From Methylococcaceae bacterium UBA975 (GTDB lineage Bacteria > Pseudomonadota > Gammaproteobacteria > Methylococcales > Cycloclasticaceae): a stretch of DNA of 64,000 bases. This document shows positions 26,731 to 45,374 of the stretch, piece by piece. Under the pieces are notes generated by a model, which saw nothing but the letters and a program-made list of their open reading frames with translations, did no database searches and was not told the origin of the DNA. Location: NCBI GenBank assembly GCA_002292375.1, contig DBBV01000020.1, positions 8,197 through 72,196 of the forward strand, given 5' to 3'. How positions within the stretch are numbered: the stretch's first letter is position 1; each line of letters starts with the position of its first letter. Both the position numbers and the translations under genes were made by a program.

Positions 26731-26799
26731 AAGCAAAAGGAATAAATGCCTTTGCGGCAGTAGGTAGTTTTAACCTATTAAGTCAATCAAACCTGACAC
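26731..26799 (+). repeat. Degenerate copy of 31210-31278 (right arm of the palindromic element plus type A TCTGACCC repeat)
   Basis: Ungapped manual alignment 51/69 identical. Confidence 0.75.
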
Positions 26800-26876
26800 G
26801 CCGTATTCTTTGTAATGTGCAGAAGAAAGTCATGGAAATGAGTCGCATTTGTCATCGACCCTTTAATTATTGGGAG

Positions 26877-26894
26877 TTTTACTCTGACCCCAAA
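26877..26894 (+). repeat. TCTGACCC repeat, type B (TTTTACTCTGACCCCAAA)
   Basis: Identical 18-mer to the copies at 31285 and 31912. Confidence 0.85.
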
Positions 26895-26921
26895 AAATAT
26901 CAAATATCATACCTAGCCTAC

Positions 26922-29339: not shown

Positions 29340-29550
29340 ATCCTTATACCTCTATATTAATCAATCACATGGCGTTACCAACAACCCTGTGTCCATCCCG
29401 GTACGAATTGTATGAACAACGATTTTAAGGTCAACGTAAAAGCCACTTTAAGCCTTTATCACTGTCTGTCCACGTTTTTCTTTCCCCATTCAGCCGGCAG
29501 CTAAATCAGTGATGGAGCCCGTAAACTAATCGTTACCTATGATTAGGCTT

Positions 29551-29568
29551 TTTTACTCTGATCCCAAA
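29551..29568 (+). repeat. TCTGACCC repeat, type B variant
   Basis: TTTTACTCTGATCCCAAA, one mismatch to the type B consensus. Confidence 0.75.
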
Positions 29569-29587
29569 GGCTTTTGAGGCATTAAAT

Positions 29588-29613
29588 CAATTGATTCTGA
29601 CCCTATTGATTTT
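29588..29613 (+). repeat. TCTGACCC repeat, type A hairpin
   Basis: AAATCAAT-TGATTCTGACCCT-ATTGATTT; directly abuts the truncated attC. Confidence 0.85.
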
Positions 29614-29695
29614 AACAGGCAAAATTTGTTTGGCTAAAATAGAGCGGAGCGAGATAGCCAGCCGTATTTTGGCCTTGTTGATTAACGTGTTATCT
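29614..29695 (-). other. attC site truncated at its right end
   Basis: AGATAAC-ACGTTAATCAACAAGGCCAAAATACGGCTGGCT...TAGCCAAACAAATTTTGCCTGTT, then the type A repeat; the terminal spacer and R' core are missing. Confidence 0.75.
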
Positions 29696-30184
29696 CTTGG
29701 TTGCAACTTTATTGCAGGCGTAAATTCTACCATTTGATTGCGATTTAACTTCTAGGCTACTTTTAGTTAATTTGAGTATGTTTGATGACTCATTGATCCG
29801 CTTTGGAATAAATTGTTTTACATTTAAAAGTTGATCTAATTCTGGATGACTAACATTTACAGACTTAATTTCTGTAGATGATAAAAGAAAATGTCCCTCT
29901 TTTATTTTCCAAATAGAGTTGCCTGTAAGGCTATATTTTAATTCAGGAAAGTTTGGCAATTTAAATAACAGGGTACCAAATCCATTTGATTTTCCAGTGC
30001 GAAAAAAATTAACGTTATAGTTAATCTTTGCTTTCATTTTAGTATTTGAATTATTGACTTCATGTTTACAATGCCAGTTCCCATACAAATCACTTTCATT
30101 GATAGCTTTTTGTCCCGTCGCGAAAGCTGACATAGAACAGACCAACGTAAACAGAGGTAAAACATTAATTAGATTCATTCTCAT
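29690..30184 (-). CDS. Cassette-encoded hypothetical exported protein (beta-barrel/lipocalin-like)
   Basis: Signal peptide, LYGNWHC motif; stop codon lies within the attC inverse core. Confidence 0.7.
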   Translation of the reverse strand: MRMNLINVLPLFTLVCSMSAFATGQKAINESDLYGNWHCKHEVNNSNTKMKAKINYNVNFFRTGKSNGFGTLLFKLPNFPELKYSLTGNSIWKIKEGHFLLSSTEIKSVNVSHPELDQLLNVKQFIPKRINESSNILKLTKSSLEVKSQSNGRIYACNKVATKR

Positions 30185-30200
30185 CCTTATAGCGATTAAA

Positions 30201-30260
30201 AGCTGACGTTTTGAATATGCCGCCGCGCTTTTTGCGGTCGGATTTATTTTTTTGTTAGGT
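30201..30260 (-). other. attC site (60 bp) with a mutated core (GTC instead of GTT)
   Basis: ACCTAAC-AAAAAAATAAATCCGACCGCAAAAAGCGCGGCGGCATATTCAAAAC-GTCAGCT; near-identical to the attC at 34023. Confidence 0.85.
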
Positions 30261-30278
30261 TTTTGGTTTGACGGAAAT

Positions 30279-30303
30279 CAATCGAGTCTGACCCCATTGA
30301 TTT
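30279..30303 (+). repeat. TCTGACCC repeat, type A
   Basis: CAATCGAGTCTGACCCCATTGATTT, 24/25 identical to 31263-31287. Confidence 0.88.
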
Positions 30304-30345
30304 GCGATTAACCCGATACTTACATGTGATTGTTTCATTTTTTCT

Positions 30346-30618
30346 TTAAGCAATCGCTTGAATATCCTCAATATGCTTGGGTTGGCATTTACTTAGGTCG
30401 TAGCTGCTTTGCAGACTTACCCAATAGTCAGGCGTTGTATTGAAGTATTTAGCCAGCCTTAAAGCTGTATCAGGCGTGATTGAACGCCTCTCTTTTATAA
30501 TGTCACCTACCCTTGTCGCAGGCATAAAAGTGTCTTTTGCTAAGCGGTATGGGGTGATGCTCATTTCTTCAAGCAATTCTTGCAAAAAAACACCGGGGTG
30601 AAATGGGTTATTAATCAT
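30346..30618 (-). CDS. higA: HigA antitoxin (HTH XRE)
   Basis: HPGVFLQE, RSITPDTALRLAKYFNTTPDYWVSLQSSYDL. Confidence 0.95.
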   Translation of the reverse strand: MINNPFHPGVFLQELLEEMSITPYRLAKDTFMPATRVGDIIKERRSITPDTALRLAKYFNTTPDYWVSLQSSYDLSKCQPKHIEDIQAIA

Positions 30619-30627
30619 AATTTACTC

Positions 30628-30909
30628 CTAGTGGTAATCAGTTATTTCTACATTGAAAGCATGGCCATTTTCAAACTCAAAACATAGCCTCCATTGTTGA
30701 TTAATTCGTATGCTGTATTGACCCTTTCTATTACCACTAAGTTTTTCCAAGTGATTCGAGGGTGGCAGACGTAAATCTTCAATGACCGCTGCATTATCTA
30801 TCTGTACTAACCGCATCAATGCGCGAGTTTTTAAATTAACAGGCAGTTTTTTAGGAAACTTACCATTAGCGGCTTGCTCAGTTAACTTGTCAGCAAAACT
30901 TTTAATCAT
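30628..30909 (-). CDS. higB: HigB RelE-family toxin
   Basis: MIKSF, DLRLPPSNHLEKL, SIRINQQWRLCF, EITDYH. Confidence 0.95.
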   Translation of the reverse strand: MIKSFADKLTEQAANGKFPKKLPVNLKTRALMRLVQIDNAAVIEDLRLPPSNHLEKLSGNRKGQYSIRINQQWRLCFEFENGHAFNVEITDYH

Positions 30910-30917
30910 AAAAATAT

Positions 30918-30952
30918 AATAACGTCTTTCGTTAATAATGCAAGGCGTTATT
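30918..30952 (-). promoter_or_regulatory. higBA promoter/operator
   Basis: TTGCAT-N16-TATTAT overlapped by TAACG/CGTTA inverted repeats. Confidence 0.55.
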
Positions 30953-30975
30953 GTTTTGCATTGAGCTTAATCATT

Positions 30976-31253
30976 GTTAAAGGAAGGTTTACTGCTTCGG
31001 CAATGTGGGTAGAGCGTTGCACGCCTACAAAGATGTAGGCGGTAGAACGACTCAGGAGACAAAGTCGAGGAGCAATTGCAGAGCACGAACCCGAAAAACA
31101 ACTGATTGTTGCGATTGAGCGCCCTTTTCTTTGGTTCGTAGCTTTTAGTCTCACTTGGCGGTTGTTTTTTTTAACCGCTTAGTGAGACTTATACCTTTAG
31201 GTGATGGGAAAGCAAAAGAAATGAACGCCCTAGCGGCAGCAATAGCCTTTAAC
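30976..31253. repeat. 278-bp structured palindromic element (MITE/REPIN-like)
   Basis: Ends GTTAAAGG...CCTTTAAC; internal hairpins GCCTACA/TGTAGGC and AGTCTCACT...AGTGAGACT; TTTTCTTT/AAAAGAAA arms. Confidence 0.6.
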
Positions 31254-31262
31254 CTATTAAAC

Positions 31263-31306
31263 CAATCGAGTCTGACCCTATTGATTTTACTCTGACCCCA
31301 AATACT
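31263..31306 (+). repeat. Fused type A plus type B TCTGACCC repeats
   Basis: CAATCGAGTCTGACCCTATTGATTTTACTCTGACCCCAAATACT. Confidence 0.88.
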
Positions 31307-31312
31307 TATTAC

Positions 31313-31804
31313 CTATTTAAATCGTTGATAGTCGTCACAAGCTTCATTTTTATTTTTGCGTAAGCTCACATCGTTCGAACCTAATGCAATGGCCGTGGCT
31401 ACATTGCATTTTTTTCTAGCTAGTTGCACCTCACTTTCCACTGTACCTTCAGCAATACTGGCAATAGTTGGTTTAAACGATGCCGCCGCGTAACAGTACA
31501 TGTTTTTTGTTTTCTTATATCGCCAACCAAGTTCAGGTTTTTGTTGTAATTCAAAGCATAGGTCGGCAAACAACTGCTTTGCTGCAATCGTGCATTTAGA
31601 AAAATCTTGAATGTTATTTGTATAGGTATAACAAACACTTTGGTCTCTCACCCGCCATAACTGATGATGAAAAGGCACAACCAAACCTTTATGCTGAATT
31701 GAGACTGCCGTTACTTCTGTGCCAATCAAGTCGGTTATTTCTTCATGCACGCTTACAGAGACATAATTAATATATGCACCAAAAGCCATTGATAGTGGGT
31801 CCAC
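31313..31804 (-). CDS. Hypothetical Cys-containing protein flanked by 23-bp direct repeats
   Basis: 163 aa, GTG start after an AGGAG RBS; no family recognised. Confidence 0.65.
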   Translation of the reverse strand: MDPLSMAFGAYINYVSVSVHEEITDLIGTEVTAVSIQHKGLVVPFHHQLWRVRDQSVCYTYTNNIQDFSKCTIAAKQLFADLCFELQQKPELGWRYKKTKNMYCYAAASFKPTIASIAEGTVESEVQLARKKCNVATAIALGSNDVSLRKNKNEACDDYQRFK

Positions 31805-31910
31805 TGTATTCTCCTTGTGAAAGCCTTAGTCCTTTAAGCCCGATTAAAACCAAATAAAAGTAATTTGGCAACACCGTATTGTTAACCCGACGGAAGATAC
31901 CCGTTAATTA

Positions 31911-31933
31911 ATTTTACTCTGACCCCAAATACT
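31911..31933 (+). repeat. TCTGACCC repeat, type B
   Basis: ATTTTACTCTGACCCCAAATACT, identical to 31284-31306. Confidence 0.9.
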
Positions 31934-31935
31934 CT

Positions 31936-32066
31936 ATATCGTTGTGTCGGTTTTATCTTTAACCAAATCGACCCACTGTTCATACCCTGCCAAAGATTGG
32001 GTGTTATGAACCACATGACCATGTATTTTTGATGTTTCTTTAATGAGCATCATCTACGTCCTTGAG
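31936..32066 (-). pseudogene. 5' fragment of a cassette (about 40-codon ORF) ending at a type B repeat
   Basis: After core GTTAGGG: MLIKETSKIHGHVVHNTQSLAGYEQWVDLVKDKTDTTI*, whose stop abuts the repeat; no attC follows. Confidence 0.55.
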
Positions 32067-32170
32067 CCCTAACGCAGCCATTTGCGGGCTGAGTGAGATG
32101 GCGGTTTTTTTGCGTGTTTTTGCAAAAAAACTGACAGCTCACGGAGATCCGCAAGATGGCCTTGTTATAG
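32067..32170 (-). other. attC site (104 bp)
   Basis: CTATAAC-AAGGCCATCTTGCGG...CCGCAAATGGCTGC-GTTAGGG long imperfect palindrome. Confidence 0.9.
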
Positions 32171-32212
32171 CTGTATTACAATGCATTCGATAAAACCTAA
32201 GTAAGTGATGGG

Positions 32213-32827
32213 TCAATTTGTTATCTTTATCGCTTTCTCTAGGCGCACACCTCCATCGGCAACAATAGCCATAAAAGCTTTACAAACAGCTTCATCATAA
32301 AGGTGTGAATTATTAGTTAGCTCACTTATAACTCTTTCTATTCCAAGCGCCTTTCTATAAGGTCTCGCATTCATCATTGCATCGGTTACATCAGCGACTG
32401 CTAAAATTCTACCACCTAAGCAGATTTTATTACCCATCAATCCATTTGGGTAACCGCTTCCATTCATTCTTTCGTGATGCTGCAAAACCATTTCACGTAC
32501 TGGCCATGGAAAATCAATGCCTGATAATAATTGATCAGCCCTTGCTGCATGGGTTTTGATTAGAGCAAATTCCTCATCAATGAGATCGCCATACTTAGAT
32601 AGCAGCTCATTAGGTATAGCAGATTTACCAATATCGTGTAACTGACCAGCAACACGAATTCCTTCTACTTCAAAAGAACTTAGTTTCATTTCCTGCCCAA
32701 TTAGGCGAGCAATGACGGAGACATTATTTTGGTGTTGTGCAGTGTATACATCACTCGAAGCCATTACAGATGATATGCTGCTAATAAGTTGATATAAAAA
32801 CAAATCACTTCGCTTATTATTTTTCAT
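32213..32827 (-). CDS. Cassette-encoded stand-alone HD-GYP protein (c-di-GMP phosphodiesterase-like)
   Basis: LHDIGK, HHERMNGSGYPNGL, ILAVADV...RPYR. Confidence 0.9.
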   Translation of the reverse strand: MKNNKRSDLFLYQLISSISSVMASSDVYTAQHQNNVSVIARLIGQEMKLSSFEVEGIRVAGQLHDIGKSAIPNELLSKYGDLIDEEFALIKTHAARADQLLSGIDFPWPVREMVLQHHERMNGSGYPNGLMGNKICLGGRILAVADVTDAMMNARPYRKALGIERVISELTNNSHLYDEAVCKAFMAIVADGGVRLEKAIKITN

Positions 32828-32887
32828 TTCCTTCCTTTAGAACCTAAACATATAATTTTCGGTTACAAATCTAAACCCGCTTGATGC

Positions 32888-32977
32888 CTATAACGTTTTA
32901 ATAACTTGCGACTTTGAGGTTCGGCCTGCTTTTTAGGCCGTAGCTCAAAGTTGTCAATGTTGATTTACTTGTTATGT
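32888..32977 (-). other. attC site (90 bp)
   Basis: ACATAAC...GACAACTTTGAGCTACGGCC/GGCCGAACCTCAAAGTCGC...GTTATAG. Confidence 0.9.
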
Positions 32978-32979
32978 GC

Positions 32980-33531
32980 TTATAGCCAATAACGTGGATA
33001 ATGCCTTTTAGGATTTGAAGATAAATTATTTATTACTAATGCAACGAGCAACATAATTACTGCACCTACCCCTATGGGCAATACTACATATAAATATCCG
33101 AGACCATGAATACTGTCACTACCTATAACTGCAATTAAAGCTGTTGCTCCACCTGGTGGATGTAAAGTAACCGTGTAATGCATAGCGACTATTGATAATG
33201 AAACTGCAAGCGCACTTAATAACTCGATATTAAGAGGGATATATTTATAAAGACTGATACCAATAAATGCAGAAATAATATGCCCACCTAATAAATTTCT
33301 AGGCTGTGAAAATTCTGCTTGTGGCGTGCCATAGATTAATACCGCAGAGGCACCAAATGAACCAACTAGAAATAGACTGTTGAGCGCATCTATATGTAGC
33401 CAATTATGGATAGTAGATACAATATAAATACCAATGAATGCTCCAAGCCAAGACCAGCCAATTTTATGGTGCGGCTTTCTCGAAGGTCTTTTATCGCCTC
33501 CAGTCATTTTTTTAAAATATTGTTTAATCAT
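32980..33531 (-). CDS. Cassette-encoded HPP-family membrane protein
   Basis: SFGASAVL, FSQPRNL, HPPGGATAL. Confidence 0.92.
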   Translation of the reverse strand: MIKQYFKKMTGGDKRPSRKPHHKIGWSWLGAFIGIYIVSTIHNWLHIDALNSLFLVGSFGASAVLIYGTPQAEFSQPRNLLGGHIISAFIGISLYKYIPLNIELLSALAVSLSIVAMHYTVTLHPPGGATALIAVIGSDSIHGLGYLYVVLPIGVGAVIMLLVALVINNLSSNPKRHYPRYWL

Positions 33532-33539
33532 GTTTTTTC

Positions 33540-33594
33540 ACATAACGCCAAAAGAACCCGCGCCTATGGCGTCGGGTTGCTTGCCTTGTTAAGC
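33540..33594 (-). other. attC site (55 bp)
   Basis: GCTTAAC-AAGGC-AAGCAACC...GGTTCTT-TTGGC-GTTATGT, canonical R''/L''/L'/R' layout. Confidence 0.92.
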
Positions 33595-34013
33595 AAATTT
33601 TCACCACCACGATAATGCTTAGGTGACAATCGATTTATATCGTGGAACGCTTCTTTATATGAATCGACGGGCCAAGCCCATGCCTCCTGAATTTCATACT
33701 CTTTGTTATACAGCACCCAAACCAGAATATCCCAGTCGTAGTTCTTTGCTTTTGGCACCATTGTTACTTTGCTGCCAGCCTTTCCGGATGGCCGATTACC
33801 TTTAACTTGATAGCGGATATTGTTGAATATGAAATCATAGCCTTTTTGCACGGCTGTTTGTGATTGCATGAAATTTGAATATTCACTTTCACTCATACCA
33901 ACTAATAGCGCCGCATCAAGTTCAGAGAGCGCAGATGTTATTAATGGAGCGACACCAAATTTTTCTTGCCAGCTCAGGGCTACATTAACAAGATTATATC
34001 GAATTCTATTCAT
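33564..34013 (-). CDS. Cassette-encoded hypothetical protein, possible PD-(D/E)xK nuclease fold
   Basis: SELDAA...KGYDFIFNNIRYQVKG resembles an E...D-x8-QxK arrangement. Confidence 0.6.
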   Translation of the reverse strand: MNRIRYNLVNVALSWQEKFGVAPLITSALSELDAALLVGMSESEYSNFMQSQTAVQKGYDFIFNNIRYQVKGNRPSGKAGSKVTMVPKAKNYDWDILVWVLYNKEYEIQEAWAWPVDSYKEAFHDINRLSPKHYRGGENLLNKASNPTP

Positions 34014-34022
34014 GGTTTTATT

Positions 34023-34082
34023 GCTTAACGTTTTAAATAAGCCGCCGCGCTTTGCGCGGTCGGATTGATTTTTTTGTTAGGT
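34023..34082 (-). other. attC site (60 bp)
   Basis: ACCTAAC-AAAAAAATCAATCCGACCGCGCAAAGCGCGGCGGCTTATTTAAAAC-GTTAAGC. Confidence 0.92.
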
Positions 34083-34385
34083 TTTTTCATTGTCAGTTTT
34101 ATTTGCAAATTCGTTGAAGTGCTTTCCAAACGCTTCATCTTCGTAATGGTTTGGATTGTACGAAAGAACGGCTGAACTTAAATGTTTTGTTTTAACTAGG
34201 AGAAGTACGCATGTGGTGGAAAGAATTACTGTTGCAGCTGCCAATAACGCTATTGCTGTGGCTAGCTTATCTACGCTTAAAGGAGATAGGGCAGATACTA
34301 CCCAGTCATGGATTAGCCAGAAAGCAGCGCCCTCTATCAGAACGAGAGAGGCATATTTCACTATTGATAATAGGCTTTTTGACAT
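34077..34385 (-). CDS. Cassette-encoded small two-TM hypothetical protein
   Basis: 102 aa with two hydrophobic segments; stop within the attC core. Confidence 0.7.
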   Translation of the reverse strand: MSKSLLSIVKYASLVLIEGAAFWLIHDWVVSALSPLSVDKLATAIALLAAATVILSTTCVLLLVKTKHLSSAVLSYNPNHYEDEAFGKHFNEFANKTDNEKT

Positions 34386-34425
34386 TTATTGCGCTCCTTG
34401 CTCATCGCTTAGTAGTGACTTAGAA

Positions 34426-34513
34426 ACCTAACGCCCGCCTTCAGCCGGCCGCTTGGAGCGGATGACCGAAGGGAAGTAGCGGAAAGTGGGTCGGCTGCAA
34501 GGCATTGTTATAA
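34426..34513 (-). other. attC site (88 bp)
   Basis: TTATAAC-AATGCCTTGCAGCCGACC...GGCCGGCTGAAGGCGGGC-GTTAGGT. Confidence 0.92.
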
Positions 34514-35437
34514 GCCAGCTTTATTGGCTTCGTTTTCCATCGAATCCCAAAACTCACTATCCAATTTTTTAATTTGGATTGTTTGCTCCACTTGTAGCCC
34601 AACTCCATATTCATACAGGTAGGTAGCGAGCTGCTGGCCGTCAATGAGAATTAAGGTAGTAGCACCGTTTAAACTCTCGGCATAAGAAACCGCGCCCTGC
34701 GAAAATGTAGATGTAGTAATGAATACGCCTTTATTGGATTGAGCCACCGCCAATGCACCAACAAATTTTTGTATTTCTTCTCTACCAACACTATTTGCCT
34801 GAGCGTAGCGTTTTGCCTGAATATGAATACGGCCAAGACCTAGGACATCTTCTTTGATGATGCCGTCTATGCCACCATCGTTAGTGTACGAGGTGACGAC
34901 CCCTGAGCCTTTTATTTCACCGCCATATCCCATCTTTTGCAGCAGAAGTACCACGAGTTTTTCAAACTCTCGTGGTGTTTTACTAAGAACGGTATCAATA
35001 ATTTCCTGATACCTCGATCCCCGAATTTTCTCCGCAGAAGCATACAACTCTTCTTGCGGTGTGAGGCTATCTTGGTTTGTTGCCAACTGTGACGGCTTAG
35101 AGGGTTTCGATTTTTGCTTCTTGGCAAATTCGGCCACCACAAAATCATTTATACCATCGGGCGACGCAAGCTTTTCAGTGCCAAGAGAGCTAATTTCATA
35201 AACGCCACGCTTAGGCTTTTTCAGTAAGCCCGCCATATTCATGTAACTAAGCGCCCAGCTTATGCGGTCATAGAATATCTTTCCGTTCCCGGATTCATAT
35301 TCTTCGTGGAGTTCGTCTTCGGATAAGGCGAAATGCTTTGCTAGTGGCGCTTCGAATTCGCTGAGTTTCAGTTGCCCGCGCTCAGAGAGCAAAGACAGCG
35401 CTGGGACGCGAATTTCATCGTGTTTTGGGATTGTCAC
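34508..35437 (-). CDS. mrr: Cassette-encoded Mrr-family type IV restriction endonuclease
   Basis: N-terminal winged helix (FYDRISWALSYM) and catalytic DGGIDG...HIQAKRY. Confidence 0.92.
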   Translation of the reverse strand: MTIPKHDEIRVPALSLLSERGQLKLSEFEAPLAKHFALSEDELHEEYESGNGKIFYDRISWALSYMNMAGLLKKPKRGVYEISSLGTEKLASPDGINDFVVAEFAKKQKSKPSKPSQLATNQDSLTPQEELYASAEKIRGSRYQEIIDTVLSKTPREFEKLVVLLLQKMGYGGEIKGSGVVTSYTNDGGIDGIIKEDVLGLGRIHIQAKRYAQANSVGREEIQKFVGALAVAQSNKGVFITTSTFSQGAVSYAESLNGATTLILIDGQQLATYLYEYGVGLQVEQTIQIKKLDSEFWDSMENEANKAGL

Positions 35438-35452
35438 GAACTCTCCTCTGAC

Positions 35453-35534
35453 TTATAACGCTTACATAAGGGGCGCGCAGCTTTTGGCGCGTCCCAGTGA
35501 GCGATAGCGAACGAGCTTGATGTTTTTGTTAGGT
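35453..35534 (-). other. attC site (82 bp)
   Basis: ACCTAAC-AAAAACATCAAG...GGGACGCGCCAAAAGCTGCGCGCCCCTTATGTAAGC-GTTATAA. Confidence 0.92.
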
Positions 35535-35556
35535 ATTGCGAGATATAAACCGACAC

Positions 35557-35859
35557 TTAAGATATGCGCTCATAAGTTTGGATTGAAAATTCTACTCCCT
35601 GAGATTGGAACAATGAACTGGACTTACCCATGATGTTGGCCCAAGCGGCGCTTTCCATGCAAGCCTCATGATCGGATTTGGATTCCCACTCCCAATACAT
35701 CATTGTCTCACTCGAATCCGTAGATAGATGAAAAGCGACCGAGACAAACCCCGGCTGTCTTTTTGCTATAGGGATCATTTCCAAACCAACATTTTGTATT
35801 TGTTCCTTAAAAGAAGGTGGAAATCTAACTTTTGAAATCGCTACATAGCTCATTGGCAT
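35557..35859 (-). CDS. Cassette-encoded ABM-family (antibiotic biosynthesis monooxygenase-like) protein
   Basis: RQPGFVS...YWEWESKSDHEA dimeric alpha-beta barrel pattern; first cassette of the array. Confidence 0.8.
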   Translation of the reverse strand: MPMSYVAISKVRFPPSFKEQIQNVGLEMIPIAKRQPGFVSVAFHLSTDSSETMMYWEWESKSDHEACMESAAWANIMGKSSSLFQSQGVEFSIQTYERIS

Positions 35860-35884
35860 TACCTTTGGCAGTTTTCGTTTTGAT

Positions 35885-35960
35885 ACCTAACTTGTTATTA
35901 AGGGGAACAAAAAGTCCCTGTAATTCCTTTACATAGCTGGACAATAATACCCTGTAATCT
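35885..35960 (-). other. Candidate attI site
   Basis: CCCCTTAATAACAA-GTTAGGT resembles attI1 CCCTAAAACAAA-GTT; no complementary attC left arm; two ATTACAGGG direct repeats upstream (35916-35924, 35950-35958). Confidence 0.65.
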
Positions 35961-35969
35961 GATAATCAA
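35941..35969 (-). promoter_or_regulatory. Candidate Pc cassette promoter
   Basis: TTGATT-N17-TATTGT pointing into the array. Confidence 0.4.
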
Positions 35970-36027
35970 GCTCAAAGCATGCCTGTTAACATGAAACAAG
36001 AGGTCAGCCAGCTTGATTTAATTTTGC

Positions 36028-36165
36028 TGTGGGTTACACCATAAGCTGCGACTAGCAACCCTTACATTTACTGGGCTCATGGACTTCATTAACCGTTTGT
36101 TTGCGACTAAATAGAAGCATAAGGTGCGACTTTACCCGTGAAAAGCGGCATAAGGTGCGACTTTA
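36028..36165 (+). mobile_element. Tn7-like transposon end (tns-distal, left-type) with TnsB-type binding sites
   Basis: TGTGGGTTACACC-ATAAGCTGCGACT has the same TGT-to-ATAA spacing as the Tn6677 end (TGTTGATGCAACC-ATAAAGTG, recalled). Further copies at about 36102 (weak), 36117-36134 and 36148-36165 (identical GCATAAGGTGCGACTTTA). Confidence 0.72.
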
Positions 36166-36421: not shown

Positions 36422-37438
36422 TTATTTATAGTTTTGACACCACGATGCCAACGTATCAACCCATGCTGGATGCTCATTGAGGCAAGGGATTAAATTTAGT
36501 TCACTGCCCCCTGCTTCTTTAAACATTTCGTCTGCGCGAATAGCAATTTCTTCTAACGTTTCTAAACAATCAGTAACAAAAGCTGGGCAAATAACCAATA
36601 CGTTTTTTACGCCTGATTGGGCCAGTTCACGCAAGCGATCTTCCGTATTGGGCCCAAGCCATTTAGCGCGGCCTAGCCTAGATTGGAAGGCGATAGAGTA
36701 TTTATCTGAAGGGATGCCGGCCTGATCAACGAAACATTGCGTGGTACGCATAATTTGGTGGCGGTAACAGGTTTTATGTGCCTCATTGGTTTGTTGGCAA
36801 CAATCTGGACGTTGTAAGCAATGCTGGCCTGTTGGGTCGCGTTTTGTAATGTGCGATTCCGGTAAGCCGTGGTAACTAAAGACGATGTGATCGTACTCTT
36901 CCTCCAAGTATGGCTTGGCACTGAGCACTAGAGCATCAATGTAGTCTGGCTGGTCATAAAACGGTTCAACCACGTTCAGTATAATGTTTAACTGATGTTT
37001 TTTTATAACACGTTCTGCTTCCTCAATTGAAGTGGTGACGGTGCTATCAGCAAAGTGTGGGTAGAGCGGGATGTAAACCACTTCTTCGATACCGGGCTGT
37101 TGACTGAGCGTTAATAATTCACTTTCTATACTTGGTTTGCCATACCGCATAGCCATTGCAACGGGCATATCCAATTTAGCCTGTAGTGCGTTTTTAAGGT
37201 GATCAGATAAGACAACCAATGGCGAACCCTCATCCGTCCAGACGCTTTGATACGCCTGCGCTGAAGCTTTGGGCCTTGTTGGCAACACAAACAGACTAAC
37301 GATCATTCGGCGTAGTAACCACGGTAACTGAATGACGTGGTGGTCCATTAAAAACTGATTGAGATAACGTCGAACTGATGCTGTGTCTGGATTATCTGGT
37401 GAACCCAAATTGGCCAGTAGTACCGCTTTATTAGTCAT
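36422..37438 (-). CDS. hemH: Ferrochelatase
   Basis: LLANLGSP, MRYGKPS, FSYHGLP, FQSRLG, FVTDCLETLEE. Confidence 0.96.
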   Translation of the reverse strand: MTNKAVLLANLGSPDNPDTASVRRYLNQFLMDHHVIQLPWLLRRMIVSLFVLPTRPKASAQAYQSVWTDEGSPLVVLSDHLKNALQAKLDMPVAMAMRYGKPSIESELLTLSQQPGIEEVVYIPLYPHFADSTVTTSIEEAERVIKKHQLNIILNVVEPFYDQPDYIDALVLSAKPYLEEEYDHIVFSYHGLPESHITKRDPTGQHCLQRPDCCQQTNEAHKTCYRHQIMRTTQCFVDQAGIPSDKYSIAFQSRLGRAKWLGPNTEDRLRELAQSGVKNVLVICPAFVTDCLETLEEIAIRADEMFKEAGGSELNLIPCLNEHPAWVDTLASWCQNYK

Positions 37439-37445
37439 ATTGAGT

Positions 37446-38354
37446 TTAATTTTTGGTGGTTAAAACGTCTGTTAACGCTAGTTTTAGGTCGGGATAATAG
37501 AAATGAAAACCCATTGCTTGTGCTTTCTCGGGAATTGTTCTTTGGCCGGTTAACAATAAACCAGACATTTCGCCTAACAGGGCTTTAAGTAACCACGCAG
37601 GTACCGGAATAAACGCATAGCGATGGAGAACGTCGGCCAATGTCTTCGTAAATAGTTTATTCGACACAGGGTTTGGTGAGTTAGCATTAAACGGCCCTTC
37701 TGCCTGATTATTGTTCGCTAGAAATGCGAGCAAGTTGACCATATCCTTAATATGTACCCAAGGCATGTATTGCTGACCAGAACCGAGCCGGCCCCCAACA
37801 CCTAATTTGAATGGCAACAACATTTTGTGCAAAAAACCACCGTTCGATGCTAAGACTAGCCCTGTTCGTACCGTGCAGACACGAACACCGGATTGTGAAG
37901 CGCGCAAGGCTTGTTGTTCCCATGCCTCGCACAATTGATGCGTGTATTCATCGGTAAAGTCACTTTGCTCTGTTAAAACGGTGTCTCCGCCATCGCCATA
38001 CCACCCGACGGCCGAACCGCTGATTAAACACTCCGGAACGTGTCTACGTTCCACTATCCAATCCACTAGATTTCTTGTTAAGCCTATTCGGCTGTCTTCT
38101 AACGCGGCTTTACGTTTTTTTGTCCACGGTTTGTCGGCAATAGGCTCGCCGGCCAAGTTGATGACCCAATCAATACTCATGTCGTCATCAATCTCAGTTA
38201 ATGACCGAATGCCTTTAACCCGCTTGCCGCATTTATCTTTAACCGTTTCTGGGTTTCTACTTAATACGGTAACGTGGTGATTTTGGCCTAGCAATTGTTC
38301 ACACAACGCCGAACCAATTAAGCCTGTTCCACCTGTTATAAGAATATTTTTCAT
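37446..38354 (-). CDS. TIGR01777-family NAD-dependent epimerase-like oxidoreductase (YfcH-like)
   Basis: ITGGTGLIG, NLAGEPIA, GSGQQYMPWVH. Confidence 0.9.
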   Translation of the reverse strand: MKNILITGGTGLIGSALCEQLLGQNHHVTVLSRNPETVKDKCGKRVKGIRSLTEIDDDMSIDWVINLAGEPIADKPWTKKRKAALEDSRIGLTRNLVDWIVERRHVPECLISGSAVGWYGDGGDTVLTEQSDFTDEYTHQLCEAWEQQALRASQSGVRVCTVRTGLVLASNGGFLHKMLLPFKLGVGGRLGSGQQYMPWVHIKDMVNLLAFLANNNQAEGPFNANSPNPVSNKLFTKTLADVLHRYAFIPVPAWLLKALLGEMSGLLLTGQRTIPEKAQAMGFHFYYPDLKLALTDVLTTKN

Positions 38355-38395
38355 CGCAACGATATTTAATTTATTGATTCATAATGACACACATC

Positions 38396-38419
38396 TATAC
38401 AAAATAATATTCTTGTATA
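38396..38419. promoter_or_regulatory. Palindromic operator between the divergent operons, possibly for the MerR-family regulator
   Basis: TATACAA-N10-TTGTATA. Confidence 0.5.
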
Positions 38420-38469
38420 AGTATTTGTAAATTGGTAATCTAAAGTAACGTTGATAAGGGGTATTAGCA

Positions 38470-39414
38470 GTGAAAATAAAAGTAGGCATCAGTAGTTGTT
38501 TGCTGGGCAATGAAGTACGTTTTGATGGTGGACATAAACATTCTCGCTTGTGCAGTGACAACTTATCTCGCTATTTTGACTTTATACCCGAGTGCCCAGA
38601 AGTTGCTAGCGGCATGTCAATCCCTCGCAAACCCATACGCCAAATTGGCGACATTAACTCGCCTAGCGTTGTTGCTGTTCACGACAACAGCTTAGATTAT
38701 ACCGACCAACTGAATACGTTTAGCAAAAACAAGGCCAAGCAATTAGATCATCTATGTGGCTATGTTTTTATGCAAAAATCACCCAGTTGCGGTGTTTTTC
38801 GGGTCAAGGTATTTCAAGAAAGCGGTTATCCAGCCGCCGAACCAGGGCGTGGGGTTTATGCAAAAGCCGTTATGGATGCCAACCCATTATTACCCGTTGA
38901 AGAATCGGGCCGATTAGAAGATGCCGTCTTGCGGGAAAACTTTATCACCCGGGTTTATGCATACCACAACTGGCAACAATTAAATAAACAAGGGCTTAGC
39001 CACCACAGCATTATTGAATTTCACGCCAGTTATAAATATTGCCTTATGGCGCGCTCTCCGACTCATTATGTTGAACTGGGGCGACTATTAGCCGATGCTG
39101 GGAAGCATGATATTGATGAATTAGCTAAGCGTTATTTTAGCTTATTGATGGAAAAACTGAGTATTCTAGCCACCCGTAAAACCCATACTAATGTGTTGAT
39201 GCATTTACAAGGCTATTTGAAAAAGGTCTTGTCCGCTAAAGAAAAACAAGAGCTTGGCAACATCATTGACCAATACCGCACCAATCAAGTGCCATTAATT
39301 GTTCCGATTACCCTACTTAAACACCACTTTAGTAACCACCCTGACCCCTACATTGCTAAACAGGCTTATTTGCAACCCTACCCCGACGATTTGAGTTTAC
39401 GAAATGCCATCTGA
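38470..39414 (+). CDS. DUF523/DUF1722 (YbgA-like) protein
   Basis: GISSCLLGNEVRFDGGH, KSPSCG, EEsGRL, YLQPYP. Confidence 0.92.
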   Translation: MKIKVGISSCLLGNEVRFDGGHKHSRLCSDNLSRYFDFIPECPEVASGMSIPRKPIRQIGDINSPSVVAVHDNSLDYTDQLNTFSKNKAKQLDHLCGYVFMQKSPSCGVFRVKVFQESGYPAAEPGRGVYAKAVMDANPLLPVEESGRLEDAVLRENFITRVYAYHNWQQLNKQGLSHHSIIEFHASYKYCLMARSPTHYVELGRLLADAGKHDIDELAKRYFSLLMEKLSILATRKTHTNVLMHLQGYLKKVLSAKEKQELGNIIDQYRTNQVPLIVPITLLKHHFSNHPDPYIAKQAYLQPYPDDLSLRNAI

Positions 39415-40306
39415 ACAAGCATTTACTATTGGTGATGTTAGCCAGCAAACTGGCGTTGCATCTGTCACCTTACGTGCATGGGAACGTCGATATGGATTAA
39501 TTAAGCCGCAAAGAACACCAAAAGGCCACCGCGTTTATAACCAAAACAATATTCAGCAAATTCAACACATTTTGTCGTGGCTTAACCGCGGCGTAGCAAT
39601 TAGCAAAGTGCCCGCATTGCTTGCCAGTGGCAAGTCATCCAACGATATAGCTTCAACTGATGAACAATGGGTAAAGCAACAAAACGGATTTCTAGCGGCA
39701 CTAACACAGCTTAAGCAGCGCGGCTTAGACCAACTGCTTGACGAATTGAACAAGGCGACGCCCTTTGTCACGTTATGTGAGCAGGTATACCAACCTTTAC
39801 ACGCGCTATTGATACAGCGCTGGCAACAGCAACCGTTAGGCTACCAACTGGAACAACAATTGTGGGAACAGGGTTGGCAACGCCAAGTGATGATTGTGAC
39901 GTTACGTACCGACAAACAAAAAGCACAAGGGACGTGCTACTTAGTGAGTCTGGACGCTGTTGGACCGTCGCTAAATTACTACTTGCTACATATCCAGCTA
40001 TTGCAAAGCGGCATTCGCGTGAATGCCTTTAATACAGTTGATGATTTAGCTGGCTTAAAACGCCTGAATAATAATGCGGAATTGCCATTAATGATTTTTG
40101 CAGATCAACGCGTAGAGCAAACAACATTTAATCAATTATCTAAGTTAAGCAACTTATGGCAAGAAGACATCATCTGCGTAGGCCGTATGGCAGATATTCA
40201 CGATAAACAACTAGCTGATATACCCCTTAATTCGGTTGGCGGCAACATGAGTGAATGTTGGCACTCAACCGTTATGCAAGCTTGGTTCGCTAAATTAAAA
40301 AAATAA
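39404..40306 (+). CDS. MerR-family transcriptional regulator (LitR/CarH-like position)
   Basis: TLRAWERRYGLIKPQRTPKGHRVY; immediately upstream of the photolyase. Confidence 0.88.
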   Translation: MPSEQAFTIGDVSQQTGVASVTLRAWERRYGLIKPQRTPKGHRVYNQNNIQQIQHILSWLNRGVAISKVPALLASGKSSNDIASTDEQWVKQQNGFLAALTQLKQRGLDQLLDELNKATPFVTLCEQVYQPLHALLIQRWQQQPLGYQLEQQLWEQGWQRQVMIVTLRTDKQKAQGTCYLVSLDAVGPSLNYYLLHIQLLQSGIRVNAFNTVDDLAGLKRLNNNAELPLMIFADQRVEQTTFNQLSKLSNLWQEDIICVGRMADIHDKQLADIPLNSVGGNMSECWHSTVMQAWFAKLKK

Positions 40307-41721
40307 TGTCACAGCAATTAGTTTGGTTTCGCAATGATTTGCGCATAAAAGATAACCCGGCGCTTTTTCATGCTTGCCAAGCAGAGCAAGCTGTAACTGC
40401 CATTTACATCGCAACCCCACATCAATGGCAAAAACACGATGATGCTGCAGTTAAAATAGATTTCTGGCGCCGCAATCTTTTTGAACTACAACAAGATTTG
40501 GCTAAACTTAATATTCAACTGCATTTTTTTGAGGAGGACAGCTATCAGCAAATACCGGATTTAATTGCCACTATTTTCCAACAATGGCAAATCAATCAAC
40601 TGTATTTTAACCAAGAGTACCAAGCCAACGAACAGCAAAGAGATCAGGCCGTTATGGAGCGTTGTCAAAAAATTGGACTGTCATATCAACACTATCATGA
40701 CCAGTTACTCTTACCACCAGCGAGTTTAAGGACGAAGGCAGGCACACCCTTTAAGGTGTTTACGCCTTTTTCAAAGCACGCTAGACGACACCTATTGAAT
40801 TCTTTTCATATTTACCCAGCACCCGAGCCTTGTAAAAAAACGACTGTCGATAAGTTGAAACATCAATGCGACTTAAGAGAAATATCGTGGCCAACGGTGT
40901 CAAAAAGTTTGTACAACTTTTGGCCCGCAGGTGAGCAAAAAGCCATAGCGAGACTAGCCGAATTTTTCCAACAACCTATTCGCAGTTACCAAAATAACCG
41001 CAATCTACCTGCAGTACTCGGTACCAGTCGCCTATCGCCTTATTTGGCGAGCGGCATTATTTCAATCCGCCAATGTTGGCAAGCTTCTGAACAATACGGA
41101 GAAGTTAATACAGACATACATATTTGGCAAAATGAATTGCTATGGCGAGAATTTTACAAACATACACTGATTGATTACCCACAAGTTTCTAGGCATAAAC
41201 CGTGGAAAATACAAACTGAACAAATTGAATGGCGACATGATGGCGAACAATTAAGTGCATGGCAGCAAGGTAAAACTGGATTCCCTCTTATTGATGCAGC
41301 CATGCGACAATTACTGACGCAGGGTTGGATGCACAATCGTTTACGCATGATAGTGGCGATGTTTTTAACTAAACATTTATTAATTGATTGGCGCTTAGGT
41401 GAGCGATGGTTTATGCAACATTTGATCGATGGTGATTTGGCAGCAAACAATGGGGGCTGGCAATGGTGTGCATCAACAGGAACTGATGCCGTTCCCTACT
41501 TCAGAATTTTCAATCCCGTCACTCAATCACAACGGTTTGATCCGAAAGGCACCTTTATTCGCCATTATTTACCCGAGTTGGCTCACTTGTCCGATAAAGA
41601 GATTCACTTACCGAACGTTAAAAATAAGCCTGAGAATTACCCAGAACCCATTGTCGATTTAAAGGTCTGCCGGATTAGAGCTCTTTCAGCCTTTAAGAAG
41701 CTAAAACAAAACGTTAATTAA
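40306..41721 (+). CDS. phrB: Class I CPD DNA photolyase
   Basis: WFRNDLR, TSRLSPYL, GWMHNRLRM, NNGGWQW, FRIFNP. Confidence 0.95.
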   Translation: MSQQLVWFRNDLRIKDNPALFHACQAEQAVTAIYIATPHQWQKHDDAAVKIDFWRRNLFELQQDLAKLNIQLHFFEEDSYQQIPDLIATIFQQWQINQLYFNQEYQANEQQRDQAVMERCQKIGLSYQHYHDQLLLPPASLRTKAGTPFKVFTPFSKHARRHLLNSFHIYPAPEPCKKTTVDKLKHQCDLREISWPTVSKSLYNFWPAGEQKAIARLAEFFQQPIRSYQNNRNLPAVLGTSRLSPYLASGIISIRQCWQASEQYGEVNTDIHIWQNELLWREFYKHTLIDYPQVSRHKPWKIQTEQIEWRHDGEQLSAWQQGKTGFPLIDAAMRQLLTQGWMHNRLRMIVAMFLTKHLLIDWRLGERWFMQHLIDGDLAANNGGWQWCASTGTDAVPYFRIFNPVTQSQRFDPKGTFIRHYLPELAHLSDKEIHLPNVKNKPENYPEPIVDLKVCRIRALSAFKKLKQNVN

Positions 41722-41732
41722 AGGATAAAACA

Positions 41733-42242
41733 ATGCGTTATTTTTTATATGGTTTTCTTTTCATTCTATCGGGTTGTGTTGGCATCCCCGAGGGCGTTCA
41801 ACCCGTTTCAAACTTTGAGCTTAATAAGTATTTAGGCAAATGGTATGAAGTTGCTCGACTAGATCATTCGTTTGAAAGAGGCTTAAACCAAGTAAGCGCA
41901 GAGTACAGCTTGAGAAAAGACGGTGGTGTAAACGTTATTAACCGCGGGTTTTCGTCTGAAAATAATGAGTGGAAAGAAGCGTTAGGTAAAGCCTATTTTG
42001 TTAACGAACCAAACGAAGGTTATTTAAAGGTTTCTTTTTTTTGGCCGTTTTATGGTTCTTATATTGTTTTTGAGTTGGACAAAGAACGTTACCAATATGC
42101 CTTCATATCCGGGCCGGATACGGATTATTTATGGTTGTTATCAAGAACTCCCACCGTTGAACCTGAAGTTATGGAAAAGTTTATCTCAATGTCTGAAGCA
42201 CGCGGATTTGATACATCACAATTGATTGTCGTTGAACATTAA
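41733..42242 (+). CDS. blc: Outer-membrane lipocalin lipoprotein Blc
   Basis: LSGC lipobox, YLGKWYEVARL, YLWLLSR. Confidence 0.93.
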   Translation: MRYFLYGFLFILSGCVGIPEGVQPVSNFELNKYLGKWYEVARLDHSFERGLNQVSAEYSLRKDGGVNVINRGFSSENNEWKEALGKAYFVNEPNEGYLKVSFFWPFYGSYIVFELDKERYQYAFISGPDTDYLWLLSRTPTVEPEVMEKFISMSEARGFDTSQLIVVEH

Positions 42243-42291
42243 TAACACTTAAACTGTATCGACGATAAGTTGAAAAAACATAGGAGCTAGC

Positions 42292-42672
42292 ATGGCAAAG
42301 CTTTTTGATTACTTTCAGATAAGGGGCTTCACACTGAAAAATCATGTGTGCGTTTCACCTATGAGCCAATACAGAGCAAAAGATGGCGCGGCCAATCATT
42401 GGCCCGGCTTTTCAAGCCGATTTTGCCAAAGAAAAACGCCAACATTGCATCAATGGCGGTTGGTTATATGGGATGCGCGTGTTGTAAATACGGTTATCGA
42501 ATCGGGGCAAGCCGACCTTATCGCCATTGGAAGAGAGTTGTTGAACAACCCTAATTGGGCTTTACAGGCAGCCAAAAAAATTGCAGCGGATGGTAATTAT
42601 TCCCTGTGGGACCCAGCCTTTGGTTGGTGGTTAAGCAAACGCGAACGCGTTATGCGTAAATTGGGACTTTGA
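42292..42672 (+). pseudogene. Internally deleted and frameshifted NADH:flavin oxidoreductase (YqjM/XenA-like)
   Basis: N-terminus LKNHVCVSPMSQY and C-terminus GQADLIAIGRELL remain; only 126 codons; NIASMAVGY lies in another frame. Confidence 0.8.
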
Positions 42673-42743
42673 TAAGCCTGTAAACAAACCCTAACTTAAT
42701 ACTACACTAGGCCACATTACTTAAATTTATAATGAGAGCAAAA

Positions 42744-43202
42744 ATGAACAAACATGATGAATTACCTACCGAGCATCACGACCCTTTAATTTCTGTTCTA
42801 CATAAGGCAATTTAATTTGCCATTAGAATATTAGCTGTGTTGATGGTACTGGTTATTTTTTGGGGCGTAGCCGATGTTTTGTACGTCATGTACAACCAGC
42901 TTATTGCGCCTCCTTTTTTACTGTTAAGCCTGTCCGATATCTTTAAAACGTTCGCAGCATTTTTAGCTGTTTTAATTGCAATTGAAATTTTTCAAAATAT
43001 TGTTTTGTACCTAAGAACAGATGTATTCCCATTAAGATTAGTTATCGCAACCGCTATGATGGCAATGGCAAGAAAAGTCATTATTATTGACTTTAAGTTT
43101 GTGGTTCCTATGCATATGTTTGCCCTGGCTAGCATCATTTTGGCATTAGGCATCACTTATTACTTGTTAGGAAAAAATAAAGAGGACGTTGTTAAATTAT
43201 GA
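42744..43202 (+). pseudogene. PsiE-family membrane protein gene with an in-frame nonsense codon
   Basis: ATG 42744 MNKHDELPTEHHDPLISVLHKAI*FAIRILAVLM; TAA at 42813-42815; the rest has IAIEIFQNI...MARKVII. Confidence 0.75.
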
Positions 43203-43579
43203 AGGCATTGTTACTCGTCGCACACGGGAGCCGACGCAAACAATCGAACGACGAAGTTGAGACCTTAGCTGAAAAACTTAAAAACAACTGTGGCGAGCAG
43301 TACGGCATTGTTAAGTCTGCTTTTTTAGAGCTTGCCGATGTGTTGATTCCTGATGGTATCGAACAATGTATTGAGGATGGCGCAACGTCTATTACTATCC
43401 TACCCTACTTCCTTAATTCTGGACGTCACGTGGTGACAGACATACCCAACATCATCAACACCTGCACCATCCAACACCCAAACATCAATATAAGCCTTGC
43501 ACCTCATTTGGGAGCTTCCGATTTAATGATTGATTTATTGATTACATCCGCCGTTAATGCGAAATCAGTTGAGGCTTAA
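43199..43579 (+). CDS. Short CbiX/SirB-type chelatase
   Basis: LLVAHGSR, AFLEL, PYFLNSGRHV..DIP, HLG. Confidence 0.9.
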   Translation: MKALLLVAHGSRRKQSNDEVETLAEKLKNNCGEQYGIVKSAFLELADVLIPDGIEQCIEDGATSITILPYFLNSGRHVVTDIPNIINTCTIQHPNINISLAPHLGASDLMIDLLITSAVNAKSVEA

Positions 43580-44070
43580 ATTTCTAAGCGCGGTTTTCGT
43601 AAAAATGTAACGAACAAAACAGCCCAAAATACTGTGCTAAACATAGTAAATTCAATCGGCATCTGTATGACGACAGAAGACAGTTTGCTTGCAGCCCAAT
43701 ACGAAGCCGGGCCAAATATGCCCCCCAGTATAACCGCAACCCATAGCTTGCCATTTATCCAGCTATAACACGTTTCAAACGTAATAGAAAAAAGCAACCA
43801 AAGTAGTAGTAACCAGAATGGTAAGGCCGATCCGTTACTAGCAAACTCGATTATTTGGAGTTTGGCTAAGCTCCAGTCTGTAATGCAGCCAATACTGAAC
43901 ATCAATAGTTTCGGCGAAAAGTACGCTAAATAAGAAATCGGTTTTGTCTTATATAAATCTACCACCAGATACAACAAAATCAAAGCGATTGCACCTAAGT
44001 AAAGCAGGTTCTCATGCCCTAAAACCAACACTAACCAACCGGCTTGAAATAATAAAACTGTTTGCCACAT
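43576..44070 (-). CDS. DUF2878-like membrane protein
   Basis: PFWLLLLWLLF, GGIFGPASYWAA; typical member of RpoE-ChrR clusters. Confidence 0.8.
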   Translation of the reverse strand: MWQTVLLFQAGWLVLVLGHENLLYLGAIALILLYLVVDLYKTKPISYLAYFSPKLLMFSIGCITDWSLAKLQIIEFASNGSALPFWLLLLWLLFSITFETCYSWINGKLWVAVILGGIFGPASYWAASKLSSVVIQMPIEFTMFSTVFWAVLFVTFLRKPRLEI

Positions 44071-44078
44071 GTTGATAG

Positions 44079-45374
44079 TTATTTCTCCAAGGGTGCTAGT
44101 GACATTGGAACACGCGCCAATGGCTTGACTAAGTGCAGTTGAGATACGCTGATGACCTGTTCTTTAAAGCCACCTTCACAGTAGCTGAAGTAGTATTCCC
44201 ACATTCGTATGAACGCGTCACTGAAGCCTTGTACTTTTATTTCTTCAATACGCTCTTTAAACGACTTTTTCCATTCATTTAACGTTCTCGCGTAATGCGT
44301 ACCGATGTCATCCATATTCGTCATTCGCAGGTCACCGGATTTAGTCAAACTGTGGCTAATGGCGTTAACAGACGGTATGCAACTACCAGGAAAAATATAG
44401 CGCTTTATGAAATCCACTTCACTTTTCGCGCTATTAAAACGCTGATCGCTAATCGTGATGGCTTGAAGTAACATTTCGCCATCGTCTTTTAAAAGATCAC
44501 TGCACTTAGCAAAGAAGGTATCAAAGTATTGATGCCCAACCGCTTCGATCATTTCTATAGACACCAACTTATCGTACTGTCCAGTGAGCTCACGGTAGTC
44601 ATGTTTTAATAAGGTGATTTTATCGCTTAAGCCTGCGTCTTCAACTTGTTCTTGCGTGTGTGCGTATTGCTCTTCAGAAATTGTAGTAGTGGTGACGTGA
44701 CAGCCATAATTCTTAGCAGCGTACATTGCAAAACCACCCCACCCTGTTCCAATTTCGATTACGTGATCTTCTGGCTTCAAATTTAAACGTGTACAAATCC
44801 TTTCTAATTTGTTGATCGATGCTTGCTCCATTGTGTCATCAGGGTGGTAGAAAATACCCGATGAATACATCATCGTTGGATCGAGAAATAACTTAAAAAA
44901 GTCATTACCTAGGTCGTAATGAGCAACAATATTGCTTTTACTTCCCGCGTGCGTATTTTTATTCAGCCAGTGAAACGCTTTTTTAATGGGGGTTGTGAAG
45001 CTTGCAAGCCCTGATTCCATTGAGTCCATAACAGATTGGTTTAGCGCAAATAGTTGAATAACCTTGGTCAGGTCTGGCGTGCGCCAGTAATCGCTTATAT
45101 AAGCTTCAGCAGCACCTACACTACCACCTAATGCTATATACCAATAAAACTCGCTATTCAAAACGTTCATTTCAACGACTAAATCGCTACGCTTATTGCC
45201 GACAAACGTTTGCGTTTCTCTATTGTCTGTCAAGGTTAATTGGCCGTACTGAAGGTGACTTAAGTGTTTAAACACGGCTTTTTTTAAGGCCTTAGTAAAA
45301 GAGGTATTTCTACTATTACTTGTTTTGTTTTCTAAGTGTTCCGTTAGTTTTTTTACTGATGCTGAATTACTCAT
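44079..45374 (-). CDS. cfa: Cyclopropane-fatty-acyl-phospholipid synthase family methyltransferase (UfaM-like)
   Basis: HYDLGNDFF, MMYSS, EIGTGWG, VSIEMIEAVG. Confidence 0.92.
   Translation of the reverse strand: MSNSASVKKLTEHLENKTSNSRNTSFTKALKKAVFKHLSHLQYGQLTLTDNRETQTFVGNKRSDLVVEMNVLNSEFYWYIALGGSVGAAEAYISDYWRTPDLTKVIQLFALNQSVMDSMESGLASFTTPIKKAFHWLNKNTHAGSKSNIVAHYDLGNDFFKLFLDPTMMYSSGIFYHPDDTMEQASINKLERICTRLNLKPEDHVIEIGTGWGGFAMYAAKNYGCHVTTTTISEEQYAHTQEQVEDAGLSDKITLLKHDYRELTGQYDKLVSIEMIEAVGHQYFDTFFAKCSDLLKDDGEMLLQAITISDQRFNSAKSEVDFIKRYIFPGSCIPSVNAISHSLTKSGDLRMTNMDDIGTHYARTLNEWKKSFKERIEEIKVQGFSDAFIRMWEYYFSYCEGGFKEQVISVSQLHLVKPLARVPMSLAPLEK

Follow-up and report, generated by a model that had tools for sequence, protein, structure and literature searches.

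Organization of the locus

The window, by which we mean the whole 64,000-nt stretch of DNA that was analysed, lies on contig C23 of a Cycloclasticus genome that is available as a draft assembly of 24 contigs. From left to right it holds a cassette array headed by an attI site, a Tn7-like end, a cluster of stress genes, four transposition genes, and the first part of a defence compartment that continues on contig C5. The features are listed below, with a slash in a sequence marking a crossover or junction.

29614-35890, minus strand: cassette array without an adjacent integrase, with attC sites in the intergenic stretches; the cassettes encode an ABM-like protein of 100 aa, Mrr of 309 aa, and then proteins of 102, 149, 183 (TM_HPP), 204 (HD) and 163 aa, each with an attC site behind it
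35891-35978, minus strand: orphan attI, with two ATTACAGGG direct repeats and the crossover AACAAG/TTAGGT
35979-35997, plus strand: intI stub, a start codon and about 4-6 codons (ATG CCT GTT AAC ATG AAA)
35994-36019, minus strand: nrdJb-downstream motif AAATCAAGCTGGCTGACCTCTTGTTT; the same motif directly follows the nrdJb stop codon in G006, G018 and G001
36023-36027, no strand: left copy of the target-site duplication TTTGC; it also borders the right end on C5 (CCACA/TTTGC) and is present as a single copy in L081
36028-36165, plus strand: Tn7-like left (tnsA-distal) end, with a TGTGGG terminus and three spaced TnsB-type repeats
36422-52228 (36433-52221 in a narrower delimitation), no strand: cargo 1, a photo-oxidative stress cluster (Pfam) of about 15.8-16 kb between tniQ and the left end
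52904-55003, minus strand: tniQ, a 699-aa TnsD-like target selector (Pfam TniQ, 65 bits, residues 7-133)
55021-56007, minus strand: tnsC, a TniB-type AAA+ ATPase (Pfam TniB, 100.9 bits)
56004-57983, minus strand: tnsB, a DDE transposase (Pfam rve, 31.4 bits, just under the cut-off of 32.6), of a length and position as in relatives
57980-58717, minus strand: tnsA, an endonuclease subunit (Tn7_TnsA-like_N, 24.7 bits, cut-off 26.5; NCBIfam TnsA_like, 51 bits, below cut-off)
59008-64000, continuing on C5:3414-11222, plus strand: cargo 2, a defence compartment (Pfam, PADLOC) between tnsA and the right end (C5:3224)

The domain scores of tnsA and tnsB are marginal; more than eight related contigs share the order and lengths of the genes and their synteny, and we assign the two as TnsA and TnsB, accompanied by a TnsC/TniB-type regulator and a TniQ-family selector. 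An AlphaFold model of TniQ (mean pLDDT 84, built on 18 homologues) matches over its first ~400 residues the TniQ of type I-F3 CRISPR-associated transposons and the TnsD-TnsC-DNA complex 8v32, and the remainder is predicted to form a string of small helix-turn-helix and beta-hairpin units matching Xis and MerR-type DNA binders.

The two ends of the element

The junction at 36027/36028 reads ...GATTTAATTTTGC/TGTGGGTTACACCATAAGCTGCGAC..., or AATTTTGC/TGTGGGTTACACCATAAGCTGCGAC with its longer left context, and the element begins at 36028. Three copies of the repeat CATAAG[G/C]TGCGAC lie just inside this end (36040-36052, 36118-36130 and 36149-36161), at +13, +91 and +122 and thus spaced as in the Tn7 left end, and the end is 84-88% identical to the left ends in G012, G003 and L038. 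From the attI crossover to the end (35891-36027) is exactly 137 bp, and in this respect an earlier account of the locus, made from the sequence without database searches (the sequence-only reading), was right to place a Tn7-like end at that distance. It had also taken the attI region to run up to TTTGC/TGTGGG; the end is real, but homology to attI stops about 30 nt short of it, and the final ~30 nt (35994-36027) are sequence that normally lies just downstream of nrdJb. The genes tnsA, tnsB, tnsC and tniQ are all on the minus strand and run from right to left across the window, which makes the end at 36028 the left one, distal to tnsA; a selector acting at the end next to attI, as that reading proposed, does not agree with this polarity.

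No inverted-repeat partner for the 36028 end is present within the window. Two other candidates for an end, at 58823-58907 (repeats upstream of tnsA) and at 52249-52290, were rejected as they have neither a TGTGG terminus nor the repeat motif. A scan of the whole 24-contig genome located the partner at C5:3224, where TGTGGTTGAGACCATAAGGTGCGACTTTT is followed by two further repeats with a spacing of 21-22 bp, so that the right-end repeats are at +13, +34 and +56, the packed pattern of the Tn7 right end. There are only two ends of this kind in the genome, one left and one right, and both are flanked by TTTGC as a 5-bp target-site duplication. The right end of C23 and the reverse complement of C5 share 24 nt, and the open reading frame of OloA continues in frame across the join; two independent JGI contigs span this join at 99.3% identity. 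Taken together, the overlap, the in-frame reading frame and the JGI contigs indicate that the element is one piece of 35,988 bp. Its inverted TGT termini with asymmetric repeat arrays, and a 5-bp duplication that is a single copy in L081, are those of a Tn7-like element. We are highly confident that it is a single 35,988-bp Tn7-like transposon at an attachment site downstream of nrdJb, with its left end beside attI by accident of neighbourhood.

An attachment site downstream of nrdJb

Beyond the right end are nrdJa (717 aa, ribonucleotide reductase barrel, Pfam Ribonuc_red_lgC) and nrdJb (235 aa, Pfam TSCPD), the latter encoding the TSCPD small subunit of a B12-dependent class II ribonucleotide reductase, and 32 nt separate the nrdJb stop codon from the right-end TGTGG. 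The far flank, beyond which the sequence-only reading thought that intI might lie, is a housekeeping gene. TGTGG ends are found 28-32 nt past the nrdJb stop codon at seven further loci, from genomes of other Cycloclasticus or from metagenome contigs (G003, two contigs of G005, G012, G021, the Logan contig L038 and the JGI contig L078), giving eight loci with the element in the window. The repeat motif CATAAG[G/C]TGCGAC is present at five of these seven (G003, both G005 contigs, L038 and L078), and in L038, the TniQ of which is 78% identical, and in L078, tnsA-tnsB-tnsC-tniQ follow directly after the nrdJb-side end. The spacers between stop codon and end are unrelated in sequence among the eight loci, and the final ~50 nt of nrdJb are nearly invariant among 23 loci. 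The left flanks vary, with a histidine-kinase region in L038 and other sequence in G003 and G012, and attI is found there only in the genome of the window. The eight loci thus have a fixed distance (28-32 nt), one orientation with the right end proximal, and a conserved gene, as expected of TnsD-type targeting. As homologous elements insert at these non-integron sites after nrdJb, with non-integron left flanks, recognition of an integron platform by TniQ, a suggestion of the sequence-only reading, is refuted on the terms that this reading itself had set.

The nrdJb-downstream motif at 35994-36019 is a hairpin in congeners and is degenerate in the window; a 'terminator hairpin' beside attI was accordingly dropped as a candidate, there being no stable fold in this genome. 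L038 and G003 have no matching duplication, which indicates a history of repeated insertions and deletions at the nrdJb site, and the closed congener G010 has two tandem fossil elements after nrdJb (L028 ~8800-9100 and ~16290-16392). Small or decayed members of this element family are also present: in G003 (L008 1896-3265) a 1.4-kb element after nrdJb has an ion-channel gene and the 3' part of a tRNA as its sole contents, and in G012 (L010 501-1345) a remnant after nrdJb has a CTTAG duplication on both sides.

No TniQ homologue is present in the other 21 genomes of the genus, and a protein scan of species-representative genomes gave no relative; the relatives came from metagenome contigs. Distant TniQ homologues (L068-L072, 26-35% identity) have no nrdJ among the called genes within up to 10 kb on each side, although several of these contigs are truncated and the comparison is uninformative on the target.

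From the position and orientation of the element and the predicted helix-turn-helix array, we infer that TniQ may bind nrdJb DNA and recruit TnsC. By analogy with known selectors, the C-terminal winged-helix array would bind the strongly conserved final ~50 nt of the nrdJb coding region, and TniQ bound there would recruit TnsC much as TnsD does at glmS. TnsAB would then insert the element ~30 nt past the nrdJb stop codon in one orientation, with the right (tnsA-side) end proximal and with a 5-bp duplication.

This is an ordinary kind of element, and its link to an integron is a coincidence of neighbourhood. It shares with Tn7 and TnsD at attTn7 (glmS) the heteromeric TnsA/TnsB, TnsC and TniQ-family selector, the TGT termini, asymmetric arrays of TnsB sites and 5-bp duplication, and insertion in one orientation at a constant distance of ~30 nt downstream of the stop codon of a conserved gene with the right end proximal, and the TniQ model matches the TnsD-TnsC-DNA structure 8v32. 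It differs in targeting nrdJb, in having a 699-aa selector with a different C-terminal array of Xis/MerR-type helix-turn-helix units, in being without a TnsE-like second selector, and in the ~13 kb of defence genes by which tnsA is separated from the right end. Tn7-like elements have been described at nrdB in Acinetobacter (PMC11014353) and at nrdD in Firmicutes and archaea (bioRxiv 10.1101/2025.07.27.667033), and the authors of these studies note that targeting of ribonucleotide reductase genes evolved repeatedly (PMC11014353; bioRxiv 10.1101/2025.07.27.667033). As in the present case, a TniQ selector directs insertion beside a ribonucleotide reductase gene, but the gene here is that of the class II small subunit, nrdJb, and the likeness is in the target theme. 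No link between nrdJ and Tn7 or TniQ targeting was found in the literature searched; thus nrdB and nrdD are reported as Tn7-like attachment sites, whereas nrdJb is not found reported in that literature.

Two cargo compartments

The stress cluster comprises genes for HemH (ferrochelatase), an SDR/DUF1731 protein, DUF1722, MerR, photolyase, lipocalin, PsiE, CbiX and DUF2878, and then a CFA-synthase-like protein, DUF1365, amine oxidase, SDR, SnoaL, desaturase, DUF3833, an ECF sigma factor, ChrR and a chalcone-isomerase-like protein. ChrR is found in only three of 22 genomes of the genus, and G016 (89-92% nucleotide identity) and G018 have the cluster at different loci that lack Tn7 ends, which indicates that it is accessory in the genus and cargo here. 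A marine hydrocarbon degrader of the genus Cycloclasticus can therefore acquire a whole stress regulon in one step. In G016 the cluster, which has no Tn7 ends, adjoins a two-cassette mini-array headed by an attI-like site.

The defence compartment contains, within the window, half of an hsdS, hsdM, an hsdS broken by an IS3-family insertion sequence (61975-63223) and the start of oloA, and on C5 the genes oloA, oloB, a 133-aa open reading frame, hsdR and a YgjP peptidase gene. Its systems are type I restriction-modification and Olokun OloA/OloB (PADLOC). Tn7-like elements do not usually have such a compartment (~13 kb) between tnsA and the right end, but the layout recurs in relatives, in which it holds other contents (for example CBASS in L065) or, in L038, only a remnant of the ygjP 3' end. 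The OloA/defence module is 99% identical to that of the JGI contig L040, in which TniQ is only 75% identical, which shows an exchange of modules among elements.

An orphan attI and an integrase on another contig

The attC sites of the array were called by eye in intergenic stretches, as a heuristic attC scan gave none. At its head, the attI crossover reads AATAACAAG/TTAGGT on the minus strand and lies between 35891 and 35890. An intact intI is present at C21:15575-16609 (TIGR02249, 443 bits), the only integron integrase of the genome above the family cut-off, and window positions 35885-35994 (110 bp) are 93-96% identical to the attI between this intI and its first cassette; the two attI sequences diverge right after GTTAGGT, around the expected G/TT crossover. 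The best attI matches in congeners adjoin their intI. In the window the stub aligns with the first codons of the C21 intI (MPANVMNK), after which the homology ends, and the array, although headed by attI, has no adjacent and divergent intI as a complete integron would. The sequence-only reading was correct that no tyrosine recombinase gene is beside attI, there being no match to an integron integrase or other tyrosine recombinase on this contig. Promoter-like matches in 35938-35989 are no commoner than in shuffled sequence.

This genome has three attI copies, of which only that on C21 (C21:16598-16715) adjoins intI; the other two are that in the window (35885-35994) and one at C16:4774-4880, which is 81% identical, follows recJ and heads at least one cassette with an attC site. 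The closed congener G010 has four attI-like copies away from intI. More generally, the ~100-bp attI sequence is multi-copy in the genus, with intI single-copy in most genomes.

An empty site and the order of events

A search of the genus genome set with the joined flanks found no empty site. One was reached through the first cassette protein of C21 (HNH, 328 aa), on NCBI contig JBFJMR010000056.1 of assembly GCA_041633815.1 (locus L081). Bases 1-201 of L081 match the C5 flank (3' end of nrdJb and spacer) at 100% identity, bases 197-336 match window 36027-35888, also at 100%, and the 5 nt in which the two matches overlap are one copy of TTTGC. The order in L081 is nrdJb, the 32-nt spacer, the downstream motif, the intI stub, attI and cassettes, and no transposon is present. 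This empty site shows that the insertion was simple and recent, that the junction between the intI stub and the nrdJb-downstream sequence is older than the transposon, and that the array was without its own integrase before the transposon arrived. In this lineage, then, the DNA downstream of nrdJb was already a cassette array headed by an orphan attI and an intI stub of 4-6 codons, and it was by chance proximity that the left end came to lie 137 bp from the crossover in attI.

The nrdJb site is a hotspot, with two tandem fossils in G010, and it can be asked whether the left end at 36028 is an older fossil and the tns genes a later insertion at the same site, such that the 36 kb would not be one event. 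The lack of matching duplications in L038 and G003 is compatible with this, as is the mosaic nature of the elements, in which the defence module is 99% identical to that of L040 against only 75% for tniQ. However, left and right ends each occur just once in the genome, the two 5-bp copies of the duplication are identical, and a sister genome with 100% identical flanks is empty, for which one recent insertion is the simplest explanation, and we consider a two-step origin improbable. An assembly or binning artefact, in which the attI/Tn7 junction or the contig join would be chimeric or C21 and C23 would derive from different strains, seems more improbable still. The genome is a draft, and the joining of the canonical intI-attI to the first cassette of this array in L080 points to strain variation, but both junctions are internal to contigs, the two copies of the duplication agree, the empty site and the joined reading frame are confirmed by independent public assemblies, and orphan attI-like copies are also present in closed congener genomes. 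Lastly, insertion of a Tn7-like element between attI and intI, with intI beyond the far end and TniQ reading the integron platform, would account for the 137-bp distance and for the few intI codons left beside attI, but we give it virtually no credence in view of nrdJb at the far flank, the tnsA-distal nature of the 36028 end, the stub already fused to nrdJb-downstream sequence in L081, the relatives after nrdJb with other left flanks, and the intact intI on C21.

A single recent insertion at nrdJb therefore remains our preferred explanation. The transposon did not split the array from its integrase, since L081 has the stub and the orphan attI and no transposon, and intI is not beyond the far end, where nrdJb is found; what did prove correct is the closing alternative of the sequence-only reading, an insertion beside an already integrase-less array, for which L081 is the exact empty site. 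The attractive idea of a Tn7 selector that reads integron platforms is thereby removed, and is replaced by a clean case, complete with empty site, of a TnsD-like selector aimed at nrdJb.

Cassettes at two attI sites

We compared the positions of cassettes in the window, C21, L080, L081 and L084. Over 4860 bp the window array is 99.86% identical to that of L081. Behind the orphan attI, L081 has a TA-like cassette, an HNH cassette and a 310-aa cassette, and then ABM, Mrr and onward, whereas the window has ABM, Mrr and onward, with the junction exact at G/TTAGGT (window 35557-35891). The HNH cassette is 100% identical in the orphan array of L081 and behind the canonical attI on C21 (C21:16697-17781), and in the ENA contig L080 a canonical intI-attI, 99.8% identical to that of C21, is joined to the ABM cassette. 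Cassettes thus appear to have moved between the canonical attI and the orphan attI, and the junctions of attI and cassette are those that would be expected as footprints of IntI action at both attI sites. On the strength of these sequence comparisons, we lean towards the view that the orphan attI at nrdJb is a working second integron docking site, which would be serviced in trans by the single IntI encoded elsewhere. If so, Cycloclasticus would have an integron with several attI sites and a single integrase.

Clusters of attC sites lacking an integron integrase (CALIN) are well known (Cury et al. 2016, PMC4889954). The array in the window resembles these in having two or more attC sites and no intI adjacent to it or elsewhere on its contig, with IntI encoded elsewhere in the genome. 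It is unlike them in keeping a recognisable attI and the first intI codons, and in that sister assemblies show precise changes at attI-attC junctions and cassettes common to this array and the canonical integron. An integrase-less array that keeps its attI, with apparent exchange with the canonical integron, may be of interest to integron biologists.

A repeat family with the core TCTGACCC/GGGTCAGA and the hairpin AAATCAAT...ATTGATTT is present both within and outside the array, with copies at 26731-26898, 29546-29614, 30256-30305, 31210-31306 and 31907-31933 of the window, at C16:~4735-4765, and at G016:C1:~217900. The family also adjoins other attI-like copies, and the nrdJb-downstream motif resembles it. 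The start and upstream sequence (26653-26695) of a gene for a SpoU-type methylase (26166-26684) are duplicated with 91% identity at 30307-30349, where the copy precedes a 90-aa open reading frame inside the array.
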